Shown here: positions 4,709-27,983 of the stretch, in pieces | Position numbering within the stretch: the first letter of the stretch is position 1 | Layout: each line of letters starts with the position of its first letter | DNA from: Candidatus Uhrbacteria bacterium | Lineage (GTDB): Bacteria; Patescibacteriota; Patescibacteriia; UBA9934; GWF2-40-263 | Reading direction: 5' to 3' | Assembly: GCA_023246275.1 (NCBI GenBank) | Contig: JAHFIS010000001.1 | Coordinates: forward strand, 2,321 to 30,303 | Length of the DNA stretch: 27,983 bases | Translations under genes and position numbers: made by a program | The notes under the pieces: model-generated | Databases searched by the model: none | What the model saw: the letters and a program-made list of their open reading frames with translations, nothing else | What the model was told of the DNA's origin: nothing

Positions 4709-6223
4709 TCAGAGTGCCGTGTCGAGAACGGCCGTGTCGACGACTCCGGTGTCGACGGTCGCCGTGTCGACCGCTCCCGTGTCGCCGCATCCCGCCGAGC
4801 CGCCGGTATCCCAGGCGTACGGGTTGCTGCAGCCGTCGGGCATGACGTACGCCGCGAGTTCCTCGCGCGCCGCGTCGACGCGCGTCGAGTAGAACTCGTA
4901 CGCGACGGCGTACTCTCCGGCGTCGGGCGACCGGAGCATCCCGTCGCCTCCGTCGTCGCCCCAGGGCGCGGCGGCCGAGCGAAGGCGCTCGTACAGGTCG
5001 GGCAAGATCGTGTTCGCGGGGTCGAGCGCCTCCATCTGGTCGAGCAGGCCGTTACACGTGTCGACCGTCTCCTGCCAGCATTGCGAGTCGTACTCGCAGC
5101 CGACGGACATGGTGGAATATCCCCACAGGTCCATTCCGGTCCAGGCGCCGCCCCAGGCGAGGCCGGCGTTGATGTCCGTGGACCAGGGCATGACGCGGAA
5201 CTTCCCGTCGTCGCCCTCGATCATGACGATGTTGTTCAGGTTGTGAACGTAGTCGTCGCCGGTCTGGGCGTACCACGAGAGGCACATCTGGGTCTGGAAC
5301 GCCGGCCAGTCGAAGTACTCGGCCGTGGCGGCCTCGAATCCCTCCTGGTAGGCATTCGCGTCCACCGCGTCGGCGAACTCGGACAGGCGGTCGGTCGTGC
5401 ACCCGTCGTGCGTCTCGCAGAACTGGTTGATGGACGCCACGTTCGCGGCGCTGATGTCGTAGGAGTACCACTCCCAGATGTTCGCGCACCCGCCGCCAAA
5501 GAAGTCGGCGTGGTCCGCGCAGAACGCGGGCTTGTACACCTCGACGAAGGCGTACGGGACCAGAATCTTGTCGTCCTGCCACGGCGTTCCGCCCACGTAG
5601 GCGTAGCTCGTGCGCGGGACCGCGTAGCCCGCCGCGTCCCAGATGGACAGCGCGAGCGGCTCGCCGATCATCGAGCCGACGCTCTCGTTGTTGAGCCGGC
5701 CATGGTCGAGCAGCTCCGCGTAGTCGAAGTACTCGCCGTCCACGAACTCGTTGCTGTCGAGCGACAGGTTCGGGATGGTCGAGGTCGTCCACGTGGTGCC
5801 GGACGACTGGCCGACGACGGTCGCCTGGACCTTGCCGTAGTCCGCGGAGTTGGTCCCGTCGAACACGTACAGGTGGTCGGCATACGTGTCGCCGGACCCC
5901 TCGTCGTCGACCGAGTAGAGCGGCCCGTACCACCCGTAATCGCCGTTCTGCCAGTCTGCGTTCATCTGCGCGACCTGGGTTTCCGAGACGTCGAACCAGT
6001 ACACGACCCCGTCCTGCGCGAACGGATCGAGCGCGAGTTCCTCGGGGGTGACCGTGGGATCGAGCTCGCTCGGCGGGTCGATCTCCTGCCAGCCGGTGTC
6101 CTCGACCGTGGCGGGAACGGTCTCGGGACCGGTATCCTGCGCGACCTCGTACACGGTCTCGTAGTAGTTGTTCGTGACGGGCGCGGGCGTGGAACAGCCG
6201 GCGATGATGAGCAGAAGGAACAT
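4709..6223 (-). CDS. CotH-family atypical protein kinase, predicted lipoprotein (504 aa)
   Basis: Start at ATG 6223 (GAGG SD; MFLLLIIAG-C lipobox). CotH-like segments: E.LA..IWDAAGYAVPRTSYAYV, Y..VE, DWPAF, GDDYVHNLNN, GKFRVMPWSTD. Very acidic. Confidence 0.75.
   Translation of the reverse strand: MFLLLIIAGCSTPAPVTNNYYETVYEVAQDTGPETVPATVEDTGWQEIDPPSELDPTVTPEELALDPFAQDGVVYWFDVSETQVAQMNADWQNGDYGWYGPLYSVDDEGSGDTYADHLYVFDGTNSADYGKVQATVVGQSSGTTWTTSTIPNLSLDSNEFVDGEYFDYAELLDHGRLNNESVGSMIGEPLALSIWDAAGYAVPRTSYAYVGGTPWQDDKILVPYAFVEVYKPAFCADHADFFGGGCANIWEWYSYDISAANVASINQFCETHDGCTTDRLSEFADAVDANAYQEGFEAATAEYFDWPAFQTQMCLSWYAQTGDDYVHNLNNIVMIEGDDGKFRVMPWSTDINAGLAWGGAWTGMDLWGYSTMSVGCEYDSQCWQETVDTCNGLLDQMEALDPANTILPDLYERLRSAAAPWGDDGGDGMLRSPDAGEYAVAYEFYSTRVDAAREELAAYVMPDGCSNPYAWDTGGSAGCGDTGAVDTATVDTGVVDTAVLDTAL
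4716..4786 (-). repeat. Five imperfect 15-nt tandem repeats encoding an (x-D-T-x-x)5 tail
   Basis: Units recur at 4716, 4731, 4746, 4761 and 4776 around a shared GTGTCG core; protein GDTGA-VDTAT-VDTGV-VDTAV-LDTAL. Confidence 0.85.
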
Positions 6224-9291: not shown

Positions 9292-9399
9292 TCCTACGCT
9301 CTAGCATTGTAGATTGAGTGCTTTGTAGAAAAGAGTTCATGAATCTAGAGTGGTTGGATTCAGAGCTTCGAATGGCAAGCCATCGAACTTAGTCTCAGC

Positions 9400-9415
9400 T
9401 GTTTCACGCGGAACA
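9400..9415. promoter_or_regulatory. parS-like site
   Basis: TGTTTCACGCGGAACA, one mismatch to the parS variant TGTTTCACGTGGAACA. Confidence 0.65.
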
Positions 9416-9446
9416 TTTACAATCGACGGAATAAGATTTGTTATAT

Positions 9447-9522
9447 GGGCCAGTAGCTCAGATGGTAGAGCGCTGCATTCGCATTGCAGAGGTCTGGGGT
9501 TCGATTCCCCACTGGTCCACCA
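9447..9522 (+). tRNA. tRNA-Ala (CGC)
   Basis: 76-nt cloverleaf, G3:U70 alanine identity pair, CTGCA/TGCAG anticodon stem with CGC, GGTTCGATTCC, encoded CCA. Confidence 0.95.
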
Positions 9523-9553
9523 AAAAAGACTCATCGAAAGATGAGTCTTTTTT
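9522..9553. terminator. Bidirectional intrinsic terminator after tRNA-Ala
   Basis: AAAAAAGACTCATC-GAAA-GATGAGTCTTTTTT, a perfect 14-bp inverted repeat with a GNRA loop. Confidence 0.9.
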
Positions 9554-9744
9554 GTAGTGGCCGTTCCCACGGCTCTGCAGTATTCGTCCAAGTGTCATTC
9601 CGGTCGAAGCTGGCAAGTCCTTGTAGAGATTGCCGCGTCGCATAAGGGCATTTCATAATGCGATGGTTCTTTGGACTTCCATCTTACTTACATCGGGAAG
9701 TTTAATTTTTACGTTAGACCAGATGATAAGAAGTGGAAATATCG

Positions 9745-9760
9745 AGTTCCATGTGAAACA
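9745..9760. promoter_or_regulatory. parS-like site
   Basis: AGTTCCATGTGAAACA, two mismatches to TGTTCCACGTGAAACA. Confidence 0.55.
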
Positions 9761-10130
9761 AGATGAATATCAACCGAATAAAGTATAAAGAAATATTTTT
9801 GATATTGATCCTCTACGAGACAAATCGCAAAAGATATTTTTCAAATTTCCCATAGTCAAATAATCATGGTTGTGGTGCTTGCTACAGTTCAATGGGCTGC
9901 AACTCCATCGTGTCATGCCATTGGCATTGCGAATGAATACAGATTCAGTTCATCGCAAAGATTGTTTCGTCGCCTGATGACTTCTCGTAATCACAAAGCG
10001 GGTAATACTGTCTGCGTTTGGACGTGAAATGAACACTGGTCGCTACTGGATATGATGACAAATTTTTTGACATAAAAGTTATTGAATTATTTTGTCAGTC
10101 ATTGACAATTCAGTAGAAGCCGAGCAAATT

Positions 10131-10280
10131 TTGTTCACTTGTCCACACCTGTGTAGACAAACTTATAACAAAGTGGATAAGTTCTTAAAAAGTGAAGATT
10201 TTGTGGGTAACTTTGAGGATTCCTCACAGTTCCTTAGTTTATTTATGAATAATTTGGCTAATTTAAGCTAATAAATTGAT
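10131..10280. other. Candidate oriC core: DnaA-box-like cluster plus AT-rich patch
   Basis: TTGTCCACA(10139 +), TTGTCTACA(10160-10152 -), TTATCCACT(10180-10172 -), TTACCCACA(10210-10202 -) and weaker TTGTTCACT(10131), TTCCTCACA(10220). 10231-10280 is 10/50 GC by hand count. Confidence 0.5.
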
Positions 10281-10308
10281 TGACGAAAGCGTGTATTCAA
10301 GGTATAAT
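10280..10308 (+). promoter_or_regulatory. Strong sigma70 promoter of the surface operon
   Basis: TTGACG(10280-10285)-17 bp-TATAAT(10303-10308). Confidence 0.8.
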
Positions 10309-15100: not shown

Positions 15101-15515
15101 GAGGGTCGTCGCCATGCTGGGCGTATTGCTCGCCGTCGTGGTCGCGATCATCCGCCCGACCGCCTTTTCAATCGGCATGGTCGGCGTCCAGATCGCGTTC
15201 CACTTCCTCGTTCGCCGCCTCGCGGTTCCCCGCAAGCCAAAGTCCTGGGGAATCGTGTACGACAAGGCTACGGGCCGGCCGCTCGAGCACGTGATCGCCC
15301 GCGTGTTCGAACCGAAATATAACAAGCTGCTCGAGACCGCGGTCACGGACAGCAGGGGCCGCTACACCTTCCTTCTCGGGCCGAACGAGTACTACACCGT
15401 CTACGAAAAAGCGGGATTCTCGAACGCCGAAATTCGGCCGATCGACTATCGCAACCTAACGGAGCCCTCGGAATTCTCACGCGACGTTCAGCTGTCGCGC
15501 GAGGAGTCGCTATGA
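12198..15515 (+). CDS. Large surface protein: N-terminal beta domain, 3 FN3-like repeats, Pro-rich linker, carboxypeptidase-regulatory-like domains, TM segments (1105 aa)
   Basis: Signal peptide; Gly linker; FN3 signatures (ATVSWTTDE...V.YG.T.SY...H...L.GL..GTTYH) twice plus a third (ISWSNP...GLTDGTTYY); TDGQFGW / VTDKGGRYFF / VTDSRGRYTF motifs; hydrophobic helices near the C-terminus. Confidence 0.8.
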   Translation: MFNRWSKSFWSVVFLIVSVTMLVAAASYAATVTTANDTPTSLQTSAGANHTVVFTTPSGVSEGETVVLGFSTAFDTASIVEDDVDVQDDGVDLTTAANCGGAEQASVAMASDELTVTICAGDGGTIAAGSEISVRIGNNAAASGIGADQIANPPTAGTYYLSIAGTFGDSGSIALPVLESGSVGVTGTVPSAGGGSGGGGGGCGDSTAPGVSSIAISGVTTSSATVSWTTDENADSAVDYGTTTSYLSGTESDTSLVTSHSKVLSGLSEGTTYHVRARSKDLCVNEAVSVDQTFMTADASAPVISNVVATVTSSSSVTVTWTTDEPATSYVHYGPTSSYGTTVGDSSLTTTHSVILTGLDAGTTYHFDVLSSDASGNSSSSTDATFATTSNPAPTNVSDLSVVPGDGTLTISWSNPTDADLAGVRVLLCSAGYPSGPTDSSCSVVYTGLANSTNVSGLTDGTTYYVGVFAYDTVGQFASGALGSGTPNASVEEVPIPAEVPLPVVTPPEGEPTVPAATGTTAIPSAAVPAGTETPAEPALPIPPTTVAAGELVPQGDVSFLVANGQIELEPSGSGTVHLLGNRPLRVMLETKHLMKPVSRVQLILGASAYIMAMAQDGSTYAADVTSPGAPADYGTAVSLSYADGTVQSITFTLEVEGDGYAYFQQDGQISRVGDANVTLVANGTAPWDGSPFAQFNPATTTTDGQFGWYVPNTTYALSADASGYSHAETGTFTVTDHIANQSIRLEPVPAEVVSPTQLTNTVRSNLSIAGMLVSASLESVRSVPGVERAAAASTPALAVVTALSAAVLFTSFDLLPFLQYVFTSPFLFFWRRKRQAYGVVYNAVTKVPLDLATVRLFRMPDDWNGDASVVGRLVQSRVTDKGGRYFFLPPPGRYRIAALKSQFVFPSKYLGGAKDDGMFLDVYHGEPILVTDANASVSANVPLDPAQAAEHRTPKQIVRRARLRVLQRVVAMLGVLLAVVVAIIRPTAFSIGMVGVQIAFHFLVRRLAVPRKPKSWGIVYDKATGRPLEHVIARVFEPKYNKLLETAVTDSRGRYTFLLGPNEYYTVYEKAGFSNAEIRPIDYRNLTEPSEFSRDVQLSREESL

Positions 15516-18500
15516 ATTCGTGGATAATTCAAAACCGATTTTCCCGCCCGTTCGCGGCCGCGCTCATCGCGCTGGTCGCCTTTGCGGTCCTGTCCTCGCC
15601 CATCCTGACGGCCTACGCGGCCGCCCCTGTGAACGCCATCTCGTACCAGGGGCGGCTGCTCGATTCTTCCGGGAATCCCGTTTCCGACGCAAGCGCCGAG
15701 TTCGTGTTCCGCCTGTTCGATTCCGCCTCGGGCGGCACCTGCCTCTGGGAGTCCGACGACGGGGCCGCGTGCGACGACCCGGACGAGACGCAGACGGTCG
15801 CGATCAACGACGGACTCTTTTCAGAAAATATCGGATCCTCGGTCGATCCCGACGGATTGTCCGAGGCATATCCCGTCGACCTTTCCGGGGTCTTTGAGAA
15901 CAACTCGGCCGTCTATCTCGAGGTCGTCATCAACGGAGAGACCCTTTCCCCGCGCAAGCAGATCGTCGCGGCTCCGTTCGCGCTCAACTCGCAGTCGCTC
16001 GACGGCCTCGACTCGACCGCTTTTCTTTCGTCGACCGGCGACACGGCGAGCGGCGCGTTCGATTTCACCGGCGCGACGATCGCCGGAACGAGCGCCCTGT
16101 CGTTCGAAGGCGCGACGACCGACGGATTCCAGACGACCCTTTCGTTTGCGGACCCGACCGCGGACAATACGGTTACCTTCCAAAATGCAAGCGGCACGGT
16201 CGCGCTTACCTCCGACATCCCGGCGGGATCGTCGCTCTGGGAAACGGGAGCGTTCGGAACGTACGAGGACGACGCGAACGTGATCGTCGGAACCTCCGGC
16301 GACGAGACGATCTCGAACGCCGCCTTCACGCTGTCCGGCAACGACCTGTTCGTCGCGGACACGCTTGGCGTCGAGGGCTCGGTGTACAGCGACGGCGCGT
16401 TCGTCGCGGGAACGACCAGCTACGGAAACGGTGACATTTCTACCACGGGAGGACAGAACGTCTCGCTGACACCGAGCGGTGGAATCGTTGACGTTATCGG
16501 TACCACCATCCGTGGATCGGGCGCCTTGGAAATTAAGTCGCAGTCCGCAAATCTTTCCCTGAACGCGGACGGGGGCGACATCGTCATCGGCGACGATCCC
16601 AGCGATAAGTTCATGCGCTTCGGAGGAAACGGAATGCGCCAGATTGAGATTGGAACGAACGCCGGCGCGGGGTACACGAACGTTCATTCCGGTACGAACG
16701 GGACGCTCCTCGATTCGACCGGAGCGATCACGATCGACTCGGCGGACTGGGACGTCAGCGCGACGGGAAACATGACGGGAATCGGATCAATTTTCTCGGA
16801 CGGCCTGATTACCGCGAACGCCGGGATCGCGACGTCTGCGGCCACGTCGCTCAGCATCGTCAGCGGGACGACCGGAACGATGACCCTTGATTCCGGAACC
16901 ACGGGAACCGTGAACATCGGAACGGGAGACGGAGGAAAGGCGATCAACATCGGAACGGACAATACCGTCGGTAACGCGATTGCCGTCGGCGCGCCGAATG
17001 GAACGCTCGACATGTATGGCACGATGACCATGAACGGACCCGTCCTCGTGAACGGGAACTTTGAGGTCACGGGCGGCGGGGCGACGGCGACGATTCAGAC
17101 CCCCTTCGTCGCAAACGGCGACGTGACGATGAACAACGTCGGAGCGAACGCGATCCTGATCGGATCGGCGGCGGACACGGTGACGCTCGCCTCGGACGCC
17201 CTCTCGCTTACGGACGACAATTGGAGCGTTACCGCAGCCGGAGTGGCAAAATTCGTCTCGATCGGCGCGGGAGGAACCGCGGGAACGGGGTCGTTTACGA
17301 CGCTTTCCGCGACTGACGACGTGACCTTGTTTTCCGCGGCCGACTTCGACCAGTCTGGATCGACGGGAACGTTCAAGACGGGTACCGGCTCGGTCACGTT
17401 GAATGGGAACGTGAACGTCGTCAGCGGAAAGACCCTTTCGCTGGCAGATCTTGCTTCCACAATGTTGAAAACCAACGGATCCGGAACACTCGTCGCGGCG
17501 ACGTCCGGGACGGACTATCTGAGCGGCTCGCTCGCGGACAACAAGGTCCTCATCGGAAACGGCGCGGGACTTGCGACGGCCGTTACCCTCTCGGGCGACG
17601 TTACGAGCACGAACGCCGGCGTTTTGACGATCGGAAGCGGGAAGGTCAACAGCGACAAGGTGCTTGATGACTCGATCATGAATGCCGACATCAATTCGGC
17701 CGCCGCGATCGCGCTTTCCAAGCTCGCGTCCGGCTCGTCGATCGTCACGTCGCTTGCCCCTCCGTCCGGGTCGAGCGCGAACGGCGGATCTATCGCGGCG
17801 AACGTCCTCACTCTGTCCCTCGCGGACGGGACGAACCCTGGGGTCGTTTCGACAGGTTCGCAGACATTTGCGGGAGACAAGACGTTCGCGGGTACGCTTA
17901 CGGCGAACGGCGTCGTCGCGCTCGGCGACAATGGCGACACGGTTGCGATCAACTCGAGCGATTGGGACGTGGACGCGACTGGCGCGATGTCAGGCATCGC
18001 AACGGTCGCTTCGAACGAAAACCAGGGGGTCCTGTTCGCTAACGTCCCCATAACGGGAACGGACGCGACCCTGCATTCCGTCGGTCTCCAAATCGACGGC
18101 AACTCCGGCGTCCTCGTTACGGCCACCGGTGACGGCGCGGGAGGCGTAGGAGATCGGATCGTCGACATTGGAAAGTCGGGCGGAACGGACACGGTAAACG
18201 TCGGCGACGCGACGTCGTCGATCTCGATCGGCGCGGTGGGAGCGAACGTCGCCCTGACGGACACGCAGTGGTCGATAACCGGCGCGGGCGCCGGGTCATT
18301 CTCGTCCCTGTCTCTCGGCGGAAATCTCGACATGACGAACAATTTGATTCTCAACGTCGGCAACGCGAACACGGACTTCACGGCCGGCGGCGGCTTGACG
18401 ATCGCGGACGACCTTTCCGTCGGCGGAACGGCCCCGTCCTCCTCGCCGTTCGGCGTGGACGAGTCCGCGAACACGATCTACATCGGCGAAGGAGCAAACG

Positions 18501-21500
18501 GAAACGGGACACTGACGTTCAAGGCGTCGGACGCGGACACGGGAAACGTCGCGTATACGACGGACGATCTTTGGGCATTCACGGGAGGCAACGTGTTTAT
18601 CGGCGGAACGTCGGTAGGCTCCGTGAAGTCGACGTTCGTACCAAACGGCGACGACTTGTACGTGGCCGGCGATATCGCGGCGCAGTCGAACATGTACGCG
18701 GACTCGTTTACGGCCGGAGACGCGTCGACCGTCTATGCCAACGGATCCATCACGACGACCGAATTCGGAATGGTGAACAACATGGATGTGACGGGCGGCG
18801 TTGACACGTACACGTATTCCATTCAAATTGACGGGAATACGGCGCTTTCCGTGGCCGCTACGGGAACGGGGGGCGGATTTGTCGGGGCGCGAACCATCCA
18901 GCTTGGAGTTTCGGCGGGCGCGGACAGCGTTGGGATTGGCGACTCAAACGCCGACGTATCCGTTACCGACGCGCAGTGGTCCGTGTCCGGCGCCGGCGCC
19001 GCGTCATTTTCGTCGCTTGGGATGACGGGCAACCTGGACATGGCGACGCACACGATCACGCAGATCGGAAACGCGGCGACGAACTTTACGGGGACCGGCG
19101 GCCTGACGCTCGCTGGAGCGTTCACGGCAAACGGGACCGTTGACGTAAATGCCCTATCCACGTTCAACACCGACATGGACTTCCTGCTCGCCGGGACGGA
19201 AAACGTCCAGCTGACGAGCACGACCGGAGCCTCGTCGGTGAATGCGTTAGCGATTCGGCTTGAGAATAACGACGCGGTCGGCGCGGGAACACAGCGAGGA
19301 ATGTACGTGACGAACGAAAGCAACGCGACAAGCGCGACTACCGAGTCGCTCATCACCTTGGACAACCTGGATTCCGATACCCTGACGGACGCGTTAAATA
19401 TCTCATCGACGGGCACGATCACGGACGCGATCGATGCTTCCGCCGCGAACATTGTCAATGCGCTGAATGTCGGCGCCAATACAATTCTGGGAACGACTGG
19501 CGTTGTCGATTATACAAACTTTGACGTCGCCTCGAATGGTAACGTGACCGTTGCGGGCGGACAGGGAATCGACGTGAACGCGGCGGGAACGCTGGCGCTC
19601 GGTAATGTGACGGCAACGACGATCAATTTGGGCAGCACAGCCGTTACTCGCGCCATCAACGTCGGAACCGGAGGAAACGCCGACACGATCCTCATCGGGA
19701 CCGGCGCGGGGGCAGATGTCATCGGAATCGGCGCGTCTACCGGAACGCTCAATCTCACGTCAGGCGCGGGCGTCATCGACTTCAATGAGTTTGACGTTTC
19801 GGGAACGACCGGAAGCGTGACGATTAATGACACTGGAGAGGATCTCGGTGCGTTGACGGTGGAAGGGACGAATTTGGATATCAATTCGCTTGATTTTGTT
19901 GGAGCAGGGACGATCACGACGACGGGGGGCGCGTCAAAGCTCATTCTTGATTCCGGATCCGGAACGATATTTGGCGCAAATGGCGACGCATTCATGGTGT
20001 CGGCGCCTCCGATCGGCGCGGATCTCGCGATCCTTAGCTCGCCGTCGCTCGTCATGATGGGATCGTATGACAGCGACGCGACGGGATCATTTCTGAGTAG
20101 CCAGGTCAGCGGCTCCATTTTTCACAAGGTGACGGATGCAGCGGGTGGTATTCCGAAATCAGAACTGGACTTCGATATCGCCGGAGGAACGGCGGAGATG
20201 ACTTTGGATTACCTGGGAAATCTCAAGGCGGTCGGAGGTACGACGTTCGGGGATGCTAGCGGACCTGACCAGTTTGCCTTTACGACGAGCGCGGCAACCG
20301 TGGACGCGATGACGTTGACGGCGAACTCGCTGACATCCGGGGCCGGATTGACCATTCAGCGCGCCGCCGGCGGAGCCCCATTTACCAGCACGTCCGGTCT
20401 GCTCGACGTGAAACAGCTCAATGTCAACGCCGGTTCGACTGGCTACGTCGCTCAATTCGTGAACGCCGGTACGGGTCCGAGCGTCTTCGTGGACGCGAAC
20501 GGGAGTACAGGAGGAACGGTCAGCGATACGGTGGGAGGCGCCGTGCATATCAGCAATACGGGAAATGCGGATTATGGACTGACTGTTTACTCAAATCAAC
20601 CAGCATCGACGAGTCCGTTGGCAATGTTTTATACGGACAATAACTCTTTCGACACGGATACCGTGCTTATCAAACATGACCGAACGGCATTGACCCCAGG
20701 AAGCACGTTGGATATGGCAGCACTTCGCATCCAGGTTTCTGATCCCGGTGATCCTGCGGATAATGCTGTCAATAATGGCGGTATCGTAATTGATACGGAT
20801 ATTTTCGATGCGGTTCATGGAGATAACCTTGGATCGGAGGTTTTCCAGATCCGGGCGTCAAGCGGCGCGAATACCGTATTTGCCGTTGACCCGGATGGTG
20901 ACTTTGGTTATGACGGCACAGCGTATACGTCGGCCTCCGATCTTGCCGAGTCATATCAAAGCACGGATACGCTTGAGCCTGGAGAAATCGTTGTTACCGG
21001 GACAGGAACGGACTCAATTCAACGAACCTCCACTTCATACCAAAACGCAATTCTTGGTGCGATTTCAACGCAGCCAGGTATTCTTTTGGGCTCTTCTGGA
21101 GCGGACGGGGCTCCGGACACCGGATATATGTTGGCTCTTGCCGGTCGCGTCCCAGTCAAAGTTGACGACGAAAATGGTCCGATCGCGATCGGCGATCCGA
21201 TTGCTTCCAGTTCCACTGCCGGTTATGGAATGAAGTCAACCCAGGCGGGAGCGATTGTTGGCTTCGCGCTGGAGGCGTATTCCGGAATCGGCCCGGGATC
21301 GATCAGCGTGTTTGTCAGCCCGCAGTTCTACGTTGGGTCGGTCCTTGCGACGGACGGCTCGGCGACCGTCGTCTCTGGCGATCTCGCTATGGCCTCGACG
21401 GGAACCGCGACCGCCACGGCGTCGGGGTTCGATTCGAACGCTTTCCAGCTTCGCGGATCGGGCTGGGACGGAGCGGCGGCGCAGAACGTGCAGATGTCCA

Positions 21501-22885
21501 TGGCGACGGACGTGACGAACTCGTCTGATTACCGTCTTTCCATAAAGAACACGGCAGGATCCGAAGTCGCGTACGTTTCCCAGGCCGGCGACATGGCGAT
21601 TGCGGGAAGACTCTATCCGTCAGATCGCGGAACGCTGCAGACCTCCAAGTATATCTATTACGACGGTTCATCCGGAAGCGGCGGCGACTTCATGCGGACG
21701 AACGCGTCTGGCTGGGCGACTGGATCCTACGACTTCGCGGAAATGTTCCCGTCCGTCGACGCGCTCGAGGCCGGAGACGTGGTCATGTTTGGCACGAACG
21801 ACGAGAGCGTTCTGAAGTCGACGGGTTCGTCGGCGAGCCTCGCGGGTATCGTCTCGACGCGACCGGGGTTCCTTGCGGGAGAAAATCGGGCGGGAGACTA
21901 TCCGATCGCGCTTGCCGGTCGCGTGCCGACGAAGGTCACGCTTGAGAACGGGTCGATCGCGGTCGGCGACCCACTGACGGCGTCGGCGACGAAGGGGTAC
22001 GCAATGAAAGCGGTGGCTTCCGGGCCGATTGTCGGGTATGCGCTTGAGGCGTATTCCGGCGCGGCCGGGGCGGACGACCGGATCATTGCGTTCGTGAATG
22101 CCGGCTATTGGAGCGGCGGGCCGACGAGTCCGACGCCTGGGACGAGGAATACCGCCTCCACGATCATCGTCACCCGGAACGCGAAAAACTTGGCCTCGCT
22201 CAACATGGAAGGGAACGTGTACATGGCGGGAAACGACATTCTCGGCGTCCGCCGTATCGCCGGGCTCTCGGACCGATGGTCGCTAGAGGAGGACGGAACG
22301 GTGAAGACGGAGGGAACGTTCCAGAACGTGATCGAGACCTACCAGGGCGACAGGGTAGCAACGACCGCGGTAACATCGCCGGACGTACAGATCACGCTCG
22401 TCGGAACTGCGACGCTCGTGAACGGGGAGGCGGTGGTACGGTTTGAGGATATCAGTTCGTCATTCAACGACATGACGTCCACCTCCGCGCCGATTCGCGT
22501 GGTCGTGACCCCAAACGGGCCGGTTTCGTTGTACGTCTACGAGAAGAACAACGACGGGTTCGGCGTCCGCCAGATGAACGGAGCCGATTCCGACGTGACC
22601 TTCGACTGGATGGTGAGCGCGTTCCGGAAGGACTTCGAGCCAGCCGTCGTTCCCGAGGGAGCATTGGCTGGCGAGCCTGTCGAGATCGTCGCGCCGATCG
22701 TCGAATTGCCGGTTGACCTGATCGCGACAAACCCGACGGTCGTTCCCGAACCGGACCCCGGCATTGCCGAGGAGACGCTCTCGGATTCCTCATCTACGAC
22801 CGATGAAGCAAGTCCGGTGAGCCCGGACACGGCCATTCCCCCTGCCGATTCGACGGAATCGAACCCCTTGGTAAGCCAGCCATAA
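15512..22885 (+). CDS. Giant secreted phage-tail-fibre-like adhesin with two peptidase-G2-like (intramolecular chaperone) domains (2457 aa)
   Basis: ATGA overlap with the previous gene; signal peptide ending AYA. N-terminal ISYQGRLLD...GLFS..IG...YLEV.INGETLSPR..I.AAPFAL domain; long Gly/Thr/Ser/Ala/Asn beta-repeat body; DLAE (20939) and DFAE (21731) each followed by GD.V...G..ST.PG...G...AL.GRVP.KV..ENG.I..GDP...S...GY.MK; C-terminal beta module and acidic Pro-rich tail. Confidence 0.8.
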   Translation: MNSWIIQNRFSRPFAAALIALVAFAVLSSPILTAYAAAPVNAISYQGRLLDSSGNPVSDASAEFVFRLFDSASGGTCLWESDDGAACDDPDETQTVAINDGLFSENIGSSVDPDGLSEAYPVDLSGVFENNSAVYLEVVINGETLSPRKQIVAAPFALNSQSLDGLDSTAFLSSTGDTASGAFDFTGATIAGTSALSFEGATTDGFQTTLSFADPTADNTVTFQNASGTVALTSDIPAGSSLWETGAFGTYEDDANVIVGTSGDETISNAAFTLSGNDLFVADTLGVEGSVYSDGAFVAGTTSYGNGDISTTGGQNVSLTPSGGIVDVIGTTIRGSGALEIKSQSANLSLNADGGDIVIGDDPSDKFMRFGGNGMRQIEIGTNAGAGYTNVHSGTNGTLLDSTGAITIDSADWDVSATGNMTGIGSIFSDGLITANAGIATSAATSLSIVSGTTGTMTLDSGTTGTVNIGTGDGGKAINIGTDNTVGNAIAVGAPNGTLDMYGTMTMNGPVLVNGNFEVTGGGATATIQTPFVANGDVTMNNVGANAILIGSAADTVTLASDALSLTDDNWSVTAAGVAKFVSIGAGGTAGTGSFTTLSATDDVTLFSAADFDQSGSTGTFKTGTGSVTLNGNVNVVSGKTLSLADLASTMLKTNGSGTLVAATSGTDYLSGSLADNKVLIGNGAGLATAVTLSGDVTSTNAGVLTIGSGKVNSDKVLDDSIMNADINSAAAIALSKLASGSSIVTSLAPPSGSSANGGSIAANVLTLSLADGTNPGVVSTGSQTFAGDKTFAGTLTANGVVALGDNGDTVAINSSDWDVDATGAMSGIATVASNENQGVLFANVPITGTDATLHSVGLQIDGNSGVLVTATGDGAGGVGDRIVDIGKSGGTDTVNVGDATSSISIGAVGANVALTDTQWSITGAGAGSFSSLSLGGNLDMTNNLILNVGNANTDFTAGGGLTIADDLSVGGTAPSSSPFGVDESANTIYIGEGANGNGTLTFKASDADTGNVAYTTDDLWAFTGGNVFIGGTSVGSVKSTFVPNGDDLYVAGDIAAQSNMYADSFTAGDASTVYANGSITTTEFGMVNNMDVTGGVDTYTYSIQIDGNTALSVAATGTGGGFVGARTIQLGVSAGADSVGIGDSNADVSVTDAQWSVSGAGAASFSSLGMTGNLDMATHTITQIGNAATNFTGTGGLTLAGAFTANGTVDVNALSTFNTDMDFLLAGTENVQLTSTTGASSVNALAIRLENNDAVGAGTQRGMYVTNESNATSATTESLITLDNLDSDTLTDALNISSTGTITDAIDASAANIVNALNVGANTILGTTGVVDYTNFDVASNGNVTVAGGQGIDVNAAGTLALGNVTATTINLGSTAVTRAINVGTGGNADTILIGTGAGADVIGIGASTGTLNLTSGAGVIDFNEFDVSGTTGSVTINDTGEDLGALTVEGTNLDINSLDFVGAGTITTTGGASKLILDSGSGTIFGANGDAFMVSAPPIGADLAILSSPSLVMMGSYDSDATGSFLSSQVSGSIFHKVTDAAGGIPKSELDFDIAGGTAEMTLDYLGNLKAVGGTTFGDASGPDQFAFTTSAATVDAMTLTANSLTSGAGLTIQRAAGGAPFTSTSGLLDVKQLNVNAGSTGYVAQFVNAGTGPSVFVDANGSTGGTVSDTVGGAVHISNTGNADYGLTVYSNQPASTSPLAMFYTDNNSFDTDTVLIKHDRTALTPGSTLDMAALRIQVSDPGDPADNAVNNGGIVIDTDIFDAVHGDNLGSEVFQIRASSGANTVFAVDPDGDFGYDGTAYTSASDLAESYQSTDTLEPGEIVVTGTGTDSIQRTSTSYQNAILGAISTQPGILLGSSGADGAPDTGYMLALAGRVPVKVDDENGPIAIGDPIASSSTAGYGMKSTQAGAIVGFALEAYSGIGPGSISVFVSPQFYVGSVLATDGSATVVSGDLAMASTGTATATASGFDSNAFQLRGSGWDGAAAQNVQMSMATDVTNSSDYRLSIKNTAGSEVAYVSQAGDMAIAGRLYPSDRGTLQTSKYIYYDGSSGSGGDFMRTNASGWATGSYDFAEMFPSVDALEAGDVVMFGTNDESVLKSTGSSASLAGIVSTRPGFLAGENRAGDYPIALAGRVPTKVTLENGSIAVGDPLTASATKGYAMKAVASGPIVGYALEAYSGAAGADDRIIAFVNAGYWSGGPTSPTPGTRNTASTIIVTRNAKNLASLNMEGNVYMAGNDILGVRRIAGLSDRWSLEEDGTVKTEGTFQNVIETYQGDRVATTAVTSPDVQITLVGTATLVNGEAVVRFEDISSSFNDMTSTSAPIRVVVTPNGPVSLYVYEKNNDGFGVRQMNGADSDVTFDWMVSAFRKDFEPAVVPEGALAGEPVEIVAPIVELPVDLIATNPTVVPEPDPGIAEETLSDSSSTTDEASPVSPDTAIPPADSTESNPLVSQP

Positions 22886-22903: not shown

Positions 22904-22934
22904 AAAAGCGCAGGTGCCCCACGCCTGCGTTTTT
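22904..22934 (+). terminator. Intrinsic terminator closing the surface operon
   Basis: AAAA-GCGCAGG...CCTGCGT-TTTT hairpin about 20 nt after the stop. Confidence 0.7.
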
Positions 22935-22999: not shown

Positions 23000-24040
23000 A
23001 TGAACGCTCTTTTCGTTCTTTCTGGACTGCTTGGCTGCTACGGCTTCATCACCCCGCAGGACGCTTCCCGCGCGATGGACCGCGACCAGGACGGGTTCGA
23101 CTACCGCGCGGACTGCAACGACGACGATGCGTCGATTGGCGCGGACACGATCTGGTACGTGGACGCGGACGGCGACGGCGACGGCGCACTGAATGCGACG
23201 GGAACCGTCTCGTGCGACGACCTGTCCGTGAACGGGTTTGTCCTGACGAACGGCGACTGTAACGATGCCGACGCGTCCATCTCGCCGACGGCGACCGAGG
23301 CGTGCAACGACATCGACGACAACTGCAACGGCGCGGTCGACGAGTCCGAGGAATGCCAGGGTCACAACACCGACGCGGACGGCGACGGATTCACGGAGGA
23401 CGTCGACTGCGACGACACGGACGCGGATGTGTATCCGAACGCGCCCGAGGTCTGGTACGACGGTATCGACGAGGATTGCCTTGGCGACGACGACTACGAC
23501 CAGGACGGCGACGGGTTCGACGCTGTCGACTACGGCGGGGAGGACTGCGACGACACGGTTGCGGCAGTGAATTCGTCGGCGGAGGAAATCTGCGACGACG
23601 GGATCGACAATGACTGCAGCGGTACCGAGAATGATGCGGATGACGCTGACGGGGATCAGTACACCGAGTGCACTGGCGACTGCAACGATGCAGATCCGGA
23701 TGTCGGGCCTTTTGCATATGATGCGTCATGCGATGGCGTCGACAACGACTGCGATGGAGAGGTCGACCAGCACGACGACCAGGACGACGACGGCGTCACC
23801 ACTTGTGATGGCGACTGCGACGACCACAACGCCAATCGCTATCCTGGAAATCCCGAGGTCTGCAATTATCTCGATGATGATTGCGACGGGTATGAGGATA
23901 ACGTTACGACGGACGTTGACGCCGATGGCTACAACACCTGTCAGGACTGCGATGACGACAATCCGGAAATCCATCCGAATGCGGAAGAGATCGTCGACGA
24001 TCCTTACGACTCCAACTGCAATGGTTCTCTGGACACCTAG
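23000..24040 (+). CDS. Lipoprotein made of Asp/Cys-rich putative metal-binding (MopE-related) repeats
   Basis: MNALFVLSGLLG-C lipobox; seven DC(N/D)D units, most with P.A.E.C..ID.DC second halves, and DxDxDG calcium-type motifs. Confidence 0.85.
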   Translation: MNALFVLSGLLGCYGFITPQDASRAMDRDQDGFDYRADCNDDDASIGADTIWYVDADGDGDGALNATGTVSCDDLSVNGFVLTNGDCNDADASISPTATEACNDIDDNCNGAVDESEECQGHNTDADGDGFTEDVDCDDTDADVYPNAPEVWYDGIDEDCLGDDDYDQDGDGFDAVDYGGEDCDDTVAAVNSSAEEICDDGIDNDCSGTENDADDADGDQYTECTGDCNDADPDVGPFAYDASCDGVDNDCDGEVDQHDDQDDDGVTTCDGDCDDHNANRYPGNPEVCNYLDDDCDGYEDNVTTDVDADGYNTCQDCDDDNPEIHPNAEEIVDDPYDSNCNGSLDT

Positions 24041-24076
24041 CCGTTGGACACACTCACACTACCCGGAGAATTCCCC

Positions 24077-24886
24077 ATGCTGACGCTCCTTCTTCTCGTC
24101 TCCCCGGCCCTCGCGCTCTGCGACAGGCCGTCCGACGTTTCCTCGATCTCCGTCGACGTCTCCACGGCGCAGCTTGCCATGGCGTCGCTTGACGACGAGA
24201 CCTTCGCGGCGTCCGTTCGTGACGCGCGGGCGACGCTCCTGTGCCTCGCGACGCCGCTCAATCCGCTCGACGCGTCGTCGTACCACGTGCTCATGGCGCT
24301 CGACGCGTTCATGGGCGGCAAGCCCGAGGACTCGGCGCGGTCGTTCCGGACCGTGCTCGCCATCAGCCCGACGTTCCGCCTTCCGGCCGCCATCGCCCCG
24401 GCCGGCGGTCCGCTCGAGAAGGCGCTCGACGCGGCGCGGGCCCAGAACGTGTCCGAGCCGCAGGCGCTTCCGGCCTACGACGGAATCGTCCTCATCGACG
24501 GCGTCCGCGCCCTGGTGCGTCCCACCGGCCGGCCGTGCATCCTGCAGCTGGTGACGACGAAAGGCGTCGTTTCCGCGACGTACTACCTCGGCACGGACGA
24601 CGAGCTGCCGCGCTGGGCCCCGCCGCCCACGGCCCTCCAGAAGGCGCTCCCAAAGGTCCGGAGCAAGCCGAGCGTGCCGTTCGCCATCGCCGCCGGCGCC
24701 ACCGCCGCGGCCGCCGTCGCCATCGACGTCTACGGGTCCACGCGGCACGACGCCTTCCTCGACCCGGCCACGCCGTACGACCAGCTCGACGCCCTGCGCG
24801 TCGAGTCCGACGGCTCCCTCGCCGCCAGCATCGGCCTCGGCGTCGCCTCGGCCGCCCTCACGACGTTCACCTTCCTTCGCTGGTGA
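24077..24886 (+). CDS. Secreted hypothetical protein: helical (TPR-like) N-domain, small beta domain, C-terminal hydrophobic hairpin
   Basis: ATG 24077 after GGAG; signal peptide MLTLLLLVSPALA; Cys pair in the helical region; two Ala/Gly-rich hydrophobic helices at the C-terminus; very high GC3. Confidence 0.65.
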   Translation: MLTLLLLVSPALALCDRPSDVSSISVDVSTAQLAMASLDDETFAASVRDARATLLCLATPLNPLDASSYHVLMALDAFMGGKPEDSARSFRTVLAISPTFRLPAAIAPAGGPLEKALDAARAQNVSEPQALPAYDGIVLIDGVRALVRPTGRPCILQLVTTKGVVSATYYLGTDDELPRWAPPPTALQKALPKVRSKPSVPFAIAAGATAAAAVAIDVYGSTRHDAFLDPATPYDQLDALRVESDGSLAASIGLGVASAALTTFTFLRW

Positions 24887-24903
24887 GCGTCTCTTTTTTT
24901 TGC

Positions 24904-24932
24904 AAAAAAATATCCGACACCGAGTGTCGGAT
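24904..24932 (-). terminator. Intrinsic terminator of the minus-strand ORFan
   Basis: ATCCGACAC-CGA-GTGTCGGAT 9-bp stem followed by a T7 run on the minus strand. Confidence 0.75.
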
Positions 24933-25753
24933 CAGTCCTGGTCGACGAGCTTGCGCTCGAGCTCCTCCTCGAAGTCATCCGGGATGTCCCTGTGGAACAT
25001 GGTCTTTCGGCTGATCGGGCGGAGGTTTTCGAAGATGCGCTGGTGGAGGTCGCCAGGATGGTATCTGGTCTGGCGCGGGTCGTCGAGCGGGACGCGGAGC
25101 ATGCGGAGCGTCGGCCCGATGCCCGGGCTCTGCGCCCACTTGTCCCAGATCTTTCCAAGGATCTTCGCCCCGTTCTCCCTGATCGTCTCGCGGACGGAAG
25201 CCTTGGTCGACGAGTCGTCGAGCCATGGGTCGCGGACGGGCGGGATGAGCCCGAACGCGCGGCGAAACATCACGGCAGGATTCCATGATTCGCGAACGCG
25301 ACGCTCTTGCTCTCGCCTTGCCAGGTCGGCGCAGGCGAAGTCGGACTCGAAGAAGTTGCTGCCCCCGTACATGGGCACGGAAAAGTACGCCGTGTACCAC
25401 GCCCCGCGCATGGCGCCGAGGCGGGTCAATTCCATGTGCAGGTCGCGGACGAGGTCGTCCAGGTCGCTGCGCGACAGCCGCTCGTGGGCGACCGGGTCGT
25501 TCGGGAAGCAGGACACGTTCCATTGCGCGACGCGCTCGTCCCCGATGTCCCGAACTGCCTTTGCTCGGCCGGTTATGCCGATGATCGCGGGATATTCCAC
25601 GTTGTCCCTGTCCTTGAGCCAGGCGACGTTCGCCGGAAGCTGGTCCCGCTTCGGAACGCGCACTTCCCGCCGGGACCGTTCCCCGGCGAGCAGCGAGTTC
25701 ATGGACGTAATGGCCGTGATGACCTTCGGGCGCTGATCATTCGTTTCGTGCAT
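24932..25753 (-). CDS. Hypothetical cytoplasmic protein (273 aa)
   Basis: GGAGG SD 4 nt before the ATG, own terminator, high GC3, globular composition. No family recognised. Confidence 0.7.
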   Translation of the reverse strand: MHETNDQRPKVITAITSMNSLLAGERSRREVRVPKRDQLPANVAWLKDRDNVEYPAIIGITGRAKAVRDIGDERVAQWNVSCFPNDPVAHERLSRSDLDDLVRDLHMELTRLGAMRGAWYTAYFSVPMYGGSNFFESDFACADLARREQERRVRESWNPAVMFRRAFGLIPPVRDPWLDDSSTKASVRETIRENGAKILGKIWDKWAQSPGIGPTLRMLRVPLDDPRQTRYHPGDLHQRIFENLRPISRKTMFHRDIPDDFEEELERKLVDQD

Positions 25754-25804
25754 GGTGCCTCCGTGCGCAATTCATCAGAATTCGGACGTCCCGTCAAGGG
25801 AACC

Positions 25805-25833
25805 TTTACAAAAACCCTCGGTTGGCGTAGGAT
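25805..25833 (+). promoter_or_regulatory. sigma70 promoter for the kinase
   Basis: TTTACA(25805-25810)-17 bp-TAGGAT(25828-25833); AGGAGG SD at 25862-25867. Confidence 0.6.
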
Positions 25834-25875
25834 CAGCCACTGTTCTTTCACACTTTTTCCTAGGAGGAAACGACA

Positions 25876-27522
25876 TTGGCAGACATCACATCGCTCGCGA
25901 AGGGCCGGTACAAGATCGTTCAGCGTCTCGGGGAAGGCGGCATGGCCGAGGTGTTCCTCGCGCTCGACACGTTCCGCGACATCCCGGTCGCGATCAAGTG
26001 TCCCTTGGCGGACGTGCTTGAAAAGGACAGGAAGAACTTTCGGTTCATGCAGGAGGTCGCGATCCACGGCCGCGTCATCCACCCGAACGTCGTCGTCATG
26101 CTGGACGCGCGAACCGAGGTCCTGTCCGACGGGAGCCGCATGCCGTACATGGTCCTGGAGTACGCTCCGGGAATTAACGCATATGACTGTTCCGGGCGTC
26201 CGGAGGAAGGCGGGTTCGGTCCGCTTCCCCCCGGGGTTGCCGGGCGCATCATGCTTTCCGTGGTCGGGGCGCTCGCGGCGATGCACCGGCAGGGAATCTG
26301 CCACCGCGACGTCAAGCCGGCGAACATCATGGTCGGCTGGGACTGCGTGGGATACCGATCGACCGGCTGGGATCCCCATGCCGTCAAGCTGATGGACTTC
26401 GGGATCGCGTTCGACGCGGACGACGACGACCGCAGGACTACCGCCAAGGCGATCCTCGGCAGCAAGCTGTACATGTCGCCCGAGCAGGACGGCGACGCGA
26501 AGAACGCCGATCACCGGTCGGATATCTTCTCCGCCGGGGCGACGCTCTACGCGCTGCTTACCGGGCAGGATCCCGCCGTCGACATCGAGGTTCAGGCGAT
26601 CACGGAGGACACGTTCGCGCTCCTGTCGGAGCCATGGAGGACGATCGTGTTCGGCGCGACGCGGTACCGGCGCCACGAGCGCGCCTATCAGACCGCCGAG
26701 GAGCTCGGTTCCGCGATCGAGTCCGCGCTCCGCGACTGTCCGGACAGGCTCGGCCCGTTCGAGCACTGGCTCGCGCAGAAAAAAATCGCGTCGCCCGTGG
26801 AGGCCGCGCTGCGACGGGCTCGCGGAAAGGGACTGACGATCGTCGCGGAGGCCGAGGAACCGGCGTCGTCCCTGTCCGGGACCGGACACACGCGCTGGTT
26901 CGACGCGGACAACGTGGACCTTCCCGAGCCGGAGGAGGTACCCGTCGCCCCGTTGCCGAAGAGCCGCGTCCGTTACGCCATGGCGGCCGTCGCGTTTGCC
27001 GCCATGGCGTCGCTCGTCCTGATCACTGCCATGGGTGGAAACGGGGCGAAGGACGGGAATTCCGCGCAGCCGGACACTGTTGTCGCCGTCGTTCCCGCCG
27101 TACTGCCAACGCCAAGCGTTGGCAGTCAGGGTTCCGCGGCCGTCGCTCCCTCGCCGGCCGTCGACGCCGCGCCCCCCTTGCCGAGCTCGAAGCCCAGGCA
27201 TCCGACGGGACCCGCCATTCCCGTTGCGACGGTCGCCGCGCCCGTCGTCCCCGTTCCGGTACTCCCAGCTCCCGTCGTGGCCCCGGCCCCCGCGGCCGAT
27301 ACCGGTTCCGTGCACCTCGTGAAGGGCGCGTCCTCGATCGTCCTTGTCGGCGCGGACGGCGTGGCACATCCCGCCGGGCGCGTATCGGCCGGAACGTACC
27401 AGATCAAGGCTTCGTTTCGGCCGTCGTCCGACCCCGTGAACGCCGGAACCGTTACCGTCATCGCGGGACAGGACCTGTCCGTGTCCTGCAGCGAGCCGAT
27501 GGCGCTGTGCAACGCCCGCTAG
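25876..27522 (+). CDS. Hanks-type Ser/Thr protein kinase with one TM helix and an extracytoplasmic Pro-rich + beta domain
   Basis: LGEGGMAEVF, VAIK, HPNVV, HRDVKPANI, DFGIA, YMSPEQ, SDIFSAG; TM YAMAAVAFAAMASLVLITAM; TTG start after AGGAGG. Confidence 0.93.
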   Translation: MADITSLAKGRYKIVQRLGEGGMAEVFLALDTFRDIPVAIKCPLADVLEKDRKNFRFMQEVAIHGRVIHPNVVVMLDARTEVLSDGSRMPYMVLEYAPGINAYDCSGRPEEGGFGPLPPGVAGRIMLSVVGALAAMHRQGICHRDVKPANIMVGWDCVGYRSTGWDPHAVKLMDFGIAFDADDDDRRTTAKAILGSKLYMSPEQDGDAKNADHRSDIFSAGATLYALLTGQDPAVDIEVQAITEDTFALLSEPWRTIVFGATRYRRHERAYQTAEELGSAIESALRDCPDRLGPFEHWLAQKKIASPVEAALRRARGKGLTIVAEAEEPASSLSGTGHTRWFDADNVDLPEPEEVPVAPLPKSRVRYAMAAVAFAAMASLVLITAMGGNGAKDGNSAQPDTVVAVVPAVLPTPSVGSQGSAAVAPSPAVDAAPPLPSSKPRHPTGPAIPVATVAAPVVPVPVLPAPVVAPAPAADTGSVHLVKGASSIVLVGADGVAHPAGRVSAGTYQIKASFRPSSDPVNAGTVTVIAGQDLSVSCSEPMALCNAR

Positions 27523-27528
27523 TCTCTC

Positions 27529-27562
27529 CCGCCCGTCGCCCTGAGCGACCGGGCGGATTTTT
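27529..27562 (+). terminator. Intrinsic terminator after the kinase
   Basis: CCGCCC-GTCGC / GCGAC-C-GGGCGG stem followed by ATTTTT. Confidence 0.7.
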
Positions 27563-27600: not shown

Positions 27601-27983
27601 ATGGGAAAAATACTGACGGGCGGGTTGGAATCGATCGCGCGCTGGCTGGCGTACGCGCTGATTTTTTTGCTTCCGATCACGATGATCCCTTCCGCGCTTG
27701 ATCCGCTCGAGGCTCAGAAACAGACGGTCCTCGTCGTTCTGACCCTCTCGGCATTCCTAGCGTGGGCATGCTCGATGGTCTCGCGCCGTAGCTTTGCGAT
27801 TCGGACCGGATGGATTCACGCGGTTCCTCTTCTTGTGCTCGGCGCGACGGTCGCGTCGGCCGCCGCGTCGTCGGCTCCGTTTCTCTCATGGGTCGGCGGG
27901 TCGGGACAGGAATACATGAGCGCGCTGACGGTCTTCGCGCTGACGGTTCTGTATTATGTCGTCGTGAACGTTCTCGGCACGGA
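27601..27983 (+). CDS. Polytopic membrane protein, 5' part only (resembles O-antigen-ligase-like/TPR proteins common in CPR)
   Basis: Absent from the ORF track because it runs off the window. Hand translation: MGKILTGGLESIARWLAYALIFLLPITMIPSALDPLEAQKQTVLVVLTLSAFLAW...SWVGGSGQEYMSALTVFALTVLYYVVVNVLGT; about four hydrophobic helices. Confidence 0.7.
   Translation, partial: MGKILTGGLESIARWLAYALIFLLPITMIPSALDPLEAQKQTVLVVLTLSAFLAWACSMVSRRSFAIRTGWIHAVPLLVLGATVASAAASSAPFLSWVGGSGQEYMSALTVFALTVLYYVVVNVLGT

Follow-up and report, generated by a model that had tools for sequence, protein, structure and literature searches.

A kinase locus of Candidatus Uhrbacteria with a probable ancient origin in the Myxococcota class UBA796

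Gene content and integrity of the locus

We analysed a stretch of 27,983 nucleotides (hereafter the window) from a Candidatus Uhrbacteria bacterium, whose metagenome-assembled genome (MAG; G000) belongs to the Candidate Phyla Radiation (CPR) and has 892 kb in 151 contigs, 62% GC and a completeness of 79%. The window contains a block of four genes between two native CPR genes (Table 1). They encode a repeat lipoprotein, a helical protein with a hydrophobic C-terminal hairpin that we call Hel, a genus-restricted protein (the ORFan) and a receptor kinase with a transmembrane (TM) segment. A preliminary description of this DNA had reported these four open reading frames, with Shine-Dalgarno (SD) motifs. 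We found all four with the features described, and motifs of the GGAG/GAGG type precede each of them. All four are genuine, intact genes on which purifying selection acts, and the block is not a chimera and not a recent island. The ratio of non-synonymous to synonymous substitution rates (dN/dS) was 0.19-0.56 over the block genes, highest for Hel and the kinase (0.38-0.56); these values are inflated by the bias in the G+C content of third codon positions (GC3).

Table 1. Positions of the block genes, their associated elements and flanks, and the separate CotH-like gene, in window coordinates.
Feature	Position	Strand	Basis
MopE-type (PF11617) repeat lipoprotein, 346 aa	23000..24040	+	Pfam, alignment, UBA796 loci
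Hel, 269 aa	24077..24886	+	AlphaFold2 (AF2), hydropathy, Atlas clusters, profile search
Hairpin resembling a terminator, where Hel and the ORFan converge	24912..24932	-	terminator scan
ORFan, genus-restricted protein, 273 aa	24932..25753	-	genomes of relatives, dN/dS
Sigma70-like promoter, TTTACA-17-TAGGAT, 5' of the kinase	25805..25833	+	consensus match alone
Hanks-type receptor Ser/Thr kinase, 548 aa	25876..27522	+	Pfam, motifs, hydropathy
TM segment of the kinase, aa 368-386	26977-27033	+	hydropathy
C-terminal beta sandwich of the kinase, 74 aa, predicted Hel-docking element	27298..27519	+	structure and fold searches
CotH-like lipoprotein with DTG tail, separate locus	4709..6223	-	Pfam; genus-level; subfamily common to UBA796
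Left flank: native CPR fibre gene, constant neighbour in the genus	15512..22885	+	synteny
Right flank: partial gene of a native CPR membrane protein, constant neighbour in the genus	27601..27983	+	synteny

The six genes, from the fibre gene to the membrane protein gene, occur in the same order on single contigs of three congeners (G002, G003 and G006) and, with both junctions included, on an independent 148-kb contig. In other genomes the block is split at contig ends, with both halves present in G001 and G005 and parts of it in G004, G007 and G008. The preliminary description had named a chimeric assembly as its main alternative. The MAG is fragmented and incomplete, which would speak for an assembly or binning error, but the recurrence of the six-gene order across both junctions, on congener and independent contigs, excludes such a chimera, to which we attach next to no probability. 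The junctions had also been said to carry intact promoters and terminators. We could see hairpins by eye only, around positions 22909-22934 and 27529-27562, and the promoter scan accepted no site at the left junction. Matches of the kinase or of the CotH-like protein were split in two on four contigs (G007:C4, at an N gap, G006:C11, G002:C21 and G006:C1).

The claim that GC3 is mostly very high in the block did not survive comparison with the rest of the genome. GC3 was 0.77 in the lipoprotein gene, 0.94 in Hel, 0.86 in the ORFan and 0.85 in the kinase (13th, 97th, 61st and 53rd percentiles, respectively), against a genome median of 0.84, and only Hel stands out. We rejected GC3 as a marker of transfer, since three of the four genes are ordinary for their genome. 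A recent genomic island is expected to have atypical composition, which the block as a whole has not, and to be absent from close relatives. Yet, the kinase and the ORFan are present in 8/8 genomes of the genus and Hel in 7/8. The arrival of the block as a single recent island from a current partner is thus very improbable. The high GC3 of Hel would fit it, and in 5/5 genomes compared Hel exceeds the flanking native genes (e.g., 0.59 vs 0.38-0.43 in G001). However, gene order is constant across the genus, the GC3 of the block falls to 0.48-0.59 in a low-GC congener, tracking each genome, the trees described below follow the genera, and the ORFan has no donor origin, with no match in five genomes of the Myxococcota class UBA796 to which we trace its neighbours.

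Hel, the kinase and their predicted contact

By its sequence, the kinase gene satisfies the definition of a Hanks-type Ser/Thr kinase. Its product matches the Pkinase profile of Pfam (E 1e-34) and has all the catalytic motifs intact (Gly loop, AxK, helix-C Glu, HRDxKxxN, DFG and xPE). The catalytic domain is followed by the TM segment, a Pro-rich linker of ~90 residues and a beta domain of 74 residues with an invariant C538-x6-C545 pair. This domain resembles transthyretin-like and CarboxypepD_reg folds (best Z 8.2, rmsd 2.0 over 70 residues). Pfam matched it weakly to CarboxypepD_reg in 21 of 66 sequences and to PEGA in 2/66, and its best match in the Atlas was the tail of a Myxococcota kinase cluster (TM-score 0.80).

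The start codon of Hel (ATG, 24077) is preceded by a GGAG SD motif; the longest open reading frame begins at 24044. Hydropathy indicates a cleavable signal peptide and two C-terminal apolar segments rich in Gly and Ala. In the AF2 model, built with 140 homologues (pLDDT 96), TPR-like helices hold two conserved Cys and are accompanied by a small beta domain and by a long hairpin of two helices. A fold search of the PDB gave no significant match, only weak TPR rows and generic hairpins, from which neither an absence of relatives nor a new fold follows. The polar tip of the hairpin (window 24700-24790) carries a conserved F-x-D-P-x-T-P...L-R-x-x-T-N motif, of which the Asn is 87% conserved and is an Asp in the window. 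It is possible that this tip is a second interaction site or a phosphorylation site.

Modelling of Hel together with the beta domain of the kinase supports their binding. The predicted complex had an ipSAE of 0.64 (best control, 0.00). This mark was attained by 58 of 80 solved pairs and by 2 of 110 mismatched ones; with custom alignments these figures apply only roughly. Three runs shared at least 97% of the contacts, and the pLDDT of the partner was at least 89. In the model, the Cys loop of the kinase (domain residues 63-72, with mostly F, M or L at position 68) lies in a groove of Hel built by the conserved motifs F-x-x-M-D, A-F and P-x-G-H-P-L. We found no similar complex in the PDB.

The lipoprotein encoded upstream has a lipobox-like Cys13, an N-terminal motif, C-x-(G)-F-I-x8-D-R-D-x-D-G, identified by alignment, and six PF11617 stretches scoring over the Pfam cut-off. 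Both Lgt and LspA are present in the genus: Lgt was found in the genome of the window and LspA in four relatives, though not in the incomplete G000. Hence, lipoproteins of this genus can mature without a host.

Distribution, trees and origin of the module

Outside Uhrbacteria, we found Hel and the Cys-closed domain of the kinase almost only in UBA796, with many paralogues and usually adjacent. One Hel cluster is present on JADKFE01 (G041) and JADJIW01, and JADJIW, the 16S of which matches the OM27 clade, was classified in this class of Myxococcota (supplement of PMC8012365). Hel was detected in 29 of the 201 genomes of G041's phylum, all in the class of G041. Within UBA796, 43 of 71 genomes had strong Hel matches, up to ~30 per genome, and 22 had weak ones. 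The Cys-closed domain was detected in 28 genomes of the class (E<1e-6); it lies within 4 kb of Hel for 65 of the 120 listed UBA796 copies, and for 10 of 12 in a single-contig genome. The profile search with Hel matched 2,664 clusters at 50% identity, the named members of which come from MAGs of Deltaproteobacteria, Myxococcota, Pseudomonadota or an "Alphaproteobacteria bacterium". Among the similar Atlas clusters the commonest taxon was Myxococcota. The UBA796 relatives escaped word-limited protein searches, and such searches are unusable as best-hit taxonomy.

The lipoprotein is the third gene of this association. Triads of MopE, Hel and kinase genes occur in UBA796; that of G203:C188 has exactly these three genes in the order seen in the window, and its Hel is the best match of the window Hel among the UBA796 loci fetched (35.5%). 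Lipoproteins with the same N-terminal motif often flank the Hel/kinase pair in UBA796 loci, and in one genome of the class (G188) three of 11 such lipoproteins adjoin a Hel (binomial p ~7e-4). The preliminary description had called these genes Myxococcota-style. This held for Hel, the C-terminal domain of the kinase, the N-terminal motif of the lipoprotein and the CotH-like protein, all of which trace to UBA796, but not for a single foreign block: the ORFan has no counterpart in the five UBA796 genomes searched, and 101/251 genomes of the window's CPR class have MopE repeats, for which reason we rejected these repeats as a host marker.

Within CPR, Hel was present in 49/162 genomes of the order and in 40/73 of the family, essentially in single copy, and in 0/400 other Patescibacteria sampled. 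The kinase gene directly follows Hel in 28/29 CPR loci, and the catalytic motifs were intact in the 14/14 kinases checked. Outside the genus of the window the pair lacks the intervening ORFan and is located elsewhere; three such pairs adjoin what appears from the sequence to be a seryl-tRNA synthetase gene. In another family, a Cys-domain kinase (L049, G028:C1, 8562-10280) that is sister to the kinase of the window's genus has no adjacent Hel and is preceded instead by two other GC3-rich genes. Two other families of the order (G955, G978, G979 and G980) have shorter relatives of Hel (~190-234 aa) that lack the hairpin.

In the Hel tree computed with a mixture model, the CPR sequences form two groups. 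The genus of the window is sister to the G203 copy (92/86), and the other CPR genera join the UBA796 subfamily S (100/100), as one branch inside this group. A single CPR clade was rejected (p=5e-6), and each CPR genus with several copies was monophyletic. The two groups and the monophyly of the genera probably reflect two acquisitions followed by vertical descent. In the kinase tree with outgroups, the CPR kinases join subfamily S (97/87), next to subfamily C, and their placement outside S and C was rejected (p=0.04).

Taken together, we favour, at a probability of about 70%, a three-gene surface signalling module that was acquired long ago from UBA796, kept in one copy and inherited vertically. 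From the tree topologies, it was probably acquired twice, once in the genus of the window and once in the rest of the family. The patchy distribution and the nesting among donor paralogues expected of an ancient transfer between phyla were both found and give it moderate support, the direction being uncertain for subfamily S. The horizontal acquisition proposed in the preliminary description is thus retained as to a donor class and to the nesting of CPR sequences in the trees; what changes is its age, since the genes are old and inherited vertically within the family. Vertical inheritance or a broad distribution in CPR had been named as grounds for refutation, and we observed the former within the family but not the latter.

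Several results weigh against this origin and against the module as we define it. In the kinase tree, CPR monophyly was not rejected (p=0.07), and UBA796 subfamily S lies inside the CPR sequences, with starred support, which could result from a back-transfer or from a long-branch effect. An earlier quick test of Hel (LG+G4), with an incomplete free search, did not reject a single CPR clade (p=0.63). Window and UBA796 copies of Hel and kinase are just 28-36% identical, and deep branches are therefore uncertain. The restriction to UBA796 outside Uhrbacteria relies on the Atlas taxa and few named matches. Conservation at the predicted interface did not significantly exceed that of the other residues (p=0.10 and 0.73). 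Finally, the lipoprotein gene lies within 1.5 kb of the Hel/kinase pair in just 6/29 CPR loci, and this member of the module may be optional in CPR.

The position of subfamily S among the CPR kinases might also mean that the module, or this subfamily, went from Uhrbacteria or an unsampled lineage into UBA796. We regard this opposite direction, or a third donor, as distinctly unlikely, since most of the diversity of the family and its distant relatives are in UBA796, CPR has one copy in one order, and the Hel copies of the other CPR genera are one branch inside the S group. An ancient origin in UBA796 accounts better for these data.

The CotH-like lipoprotein, encoded elsewhere in the window, may have a related history. 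It matches PF08757 weakly (25.9 bits against a cut-off of 23.8) and occurs in 6/8 congeners and in no other relative sampled. Over most of its length it is 42-44% identical to proteins of three UBA796 genomes that carry Hel. The clade (100/100, on a long branch) contains the window's genus, UBA796 and proteins of unassigned origin, and a profile scan of genome contigs matched only a Patescibacteria record. This sequence similarity suggests a further, later transfer from UBA796.

Many more lipoproteins with short LLLxxC signals are scattered over the contigs of G000 (C48, C61, C65, C74, C121, C134, C143, C5 and C89; L239-L245), most with acidic D-T-G/D-S-G linkers. For two other DTG lipoproteins (on C61 and C143), neither UBA796 nor its phylum gave a full-length match, and the DTG style alone is therefore no proof of transfer; the linker may be a common signal for export or spacing that is joined to native domains. 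In four other genera (L043, L044, L046 and L048), a GC3-rich gene for a lipoprotein or secreted protein lies a few kb 5' of Hel, at the place that the MopE lipoprotein gene takes in the genus of the window, with the DTG/DSG linker in three of them. This slot 5' of Hel may be exchangeable.

The ORFan is not unique to this genome, as its initial naming implied: it is present in all eight genomes of the genus and in 0/32 other relatives. The name stands in that no Pfam family scored over its cut-off (a match to TrcR fell below it) and neither NCBIfam nor the Atlas gave a usable match, so that these searches yielded no function; the five UBA796 genomes gave no link to Myxococcota either. The gene is oriented divergently from the kinase gene, and its dN/dS is ~0.26. 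Of the eight orthologues, three (L034, L038 and L041) have a hydrophobic helix at the C-terminus and two are missing an internal segment; in part of the genus these proteins may be tethered to the membrane. Elsewhere in the window, GC dips to ~41% at 9300-10300, where gene orientation changes.

Proposed working, the host question and known systems

Around the Hel-kinase pair we infer the following working. The cytoplasmic catalytic domain of the kinase would be tethered, through the TM segment and the Pro-rich spacer, to the external beta domain, the disulfide-closed loop of which would dock into the groove of Hel as in the model. Hel, held in the membrane by its hairpin, would be an adaptor or co-receptor. 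The outward-facing lipoprotein might bind a metal or a surface ligand as the signal and then change or cluster Hel, and clustered Hel would cluster the kinase and activate it towards its putative substrates. Kinases of the PknB type, on which we base this analogy, are activated by clustering. For the diderm donor, a link across the periplasm to Hel in the outer membrane would agree with the long spacer and the weakly hydrophobic hairpin. In the CPR cell, the single membrane might hold both kinase and Hel, or the spacer might cross the wall. The ORFan would be an unrelated gene, specific to the genus, that settled later between Hel and the kinase.

The preliminary description had suggested surface mimicry or signalling interference. 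On such a reading Hel and the lipoprotein, displayed or released, would bind the loops of the many paralogous kinases of a host and jam its signalling or serve as a disguise against it. The many Hel paralogues of the donor and the conserved groove and loop make cross-binding plausible, and Hel and the kinase have the highest dN/dS of the block, but the GC3 bias inflates these values. Moreover, the cognate kinase stands beside Hel in nearly all CPR loci with its motifs intact, and a decoy would not need it; the module is also in single copy. We consider mimicry unlikely. That both partners have been retained, with the catalytic motifs intact, is better explained by a self-contained signalling unit.

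We know of no identified host for most CPR lineages, Uhrbacteria included. That UBA796 are or were hosts of this Uhrbacteria family, and that contact with the host envelope is what the module senses, is a tentative possibility. The probable acquisitions of Hel, at least two, and the genus-level CotH-like protein with its full-length UBA796 relatives (42-44%) suggest that one donor class contributed genes at different times. The length of the spacer has also been kept (median of 92 aa in CPR vs 94 aa in UBA796), although CPR bacteria are described as lacking an outer membrane. On the other side, two other DTG lipoproteins matched nothing over their full length in UBA796 or in its phylum, and the clade of the CotH-like protein also holds proteins of unassigned origin. 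In catalysed reporter deposition fluorescence in situ hybridization (CARD-FISH) of two families of order SG8-24, the cells seen of UBA9934 were all unattached, whereas those of GWF2-40-263 were either free or attached to lake snow (PMC9166423). Genes for DNA uptake (ComEA/ComEC) are present in most freshwater CPR MAGs, and neighbours would suffice as donors. Repeated transfer from one class fits long contact; DNA uptake from neighbours would leave the same trace. More doubtful still is the full scenario in which the family lives or evolved on UBA796 and repeatedly captured the trans-envelope kinase module of its host as a contact sensor, the spacer crossing the CPR wall to dock on Hel in an outer lipid layer, possibly the host envelope.

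We found no paper on the module or on a link between Uhrbacteria and Myxococcota, in a literature coverage that is thin for subscription journals. The donor class, the third gene, the repeated transfer and the predicted interface appear to be new, and we believe the receptor-kinase/co-receptor pair to be undescribed. These results make UBA796 a named and testable host candidate for a family of Uhrbacteria. OM27 sequences, which need not belong to UBA796, took up label from Escherichia coli prey in sludge (PMC9919749). The results also point to a receptor-kinase/co-receptor pair for which an interface is predicted and which has undergone heavy expansion in an uncultured class of Myxococcota. 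A gene-poor genome of ~1 Mb would have kept this diderm-derived signalling module over family-level time.

Hosts of CPR bacteria have been inferred from horizontally transferred genes, e.g., for Saccharibacteria and Actinobacteria. Our data resemble such cases in that lineage-restricted genes are common to a CPR clade and one non-CPR clade. They differ from inferences based on near-identical DNA, since here the transfer is ancient and ameliorated and concerns a whole signalling module. Among the proteins, the lipoprotein resembles the MopE-related metal-binding repeat proteins of PF11617 by its six repeats, but consists of repeats only, next to the N-terminal motif associated with the module, and its metal binding is putative. 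The CotH-like protein is similar to CotH kinases (PF08757) only by its weak Pfam match and differs as a lipoprotein subfamily on a long branch.

Myxococcota have TPR-PEGA proteins, which are paired with kinases, and PEGA-tailed kinases (PF08308, PF07719). Hel may resemble the TPR-PEGA proteins in its signal peptide, TPR-like helices, beta domain and C-terminal hairpin, with Atlas neighbours at 0.88, a TM-score of 0.51 to the PEGA cluster and weak TPR matches in the PDB. Yet, 0/140 members of Hel match the PEGA profile of Pfam and only 3/140 match TPR_2. The kinase shares with PknB/Stk1 (NF033483, kinase-TM-PASTA) the Hanks domain, the single TM segment and an external sensor domain. NF033483 is its best NCBIfam match, but at 182 bits it is below the cut-off of 450 bits and, since PASTA repeats (PF03793) are also missing, we rejected membership of this family. 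The kinase falls outside the PASTA kinases in the tree and is set apart from them by its long Pro-rich spacer, its Cys-closed transthyretin-like domain and a dedicated partner encoded by the adjacent gene.

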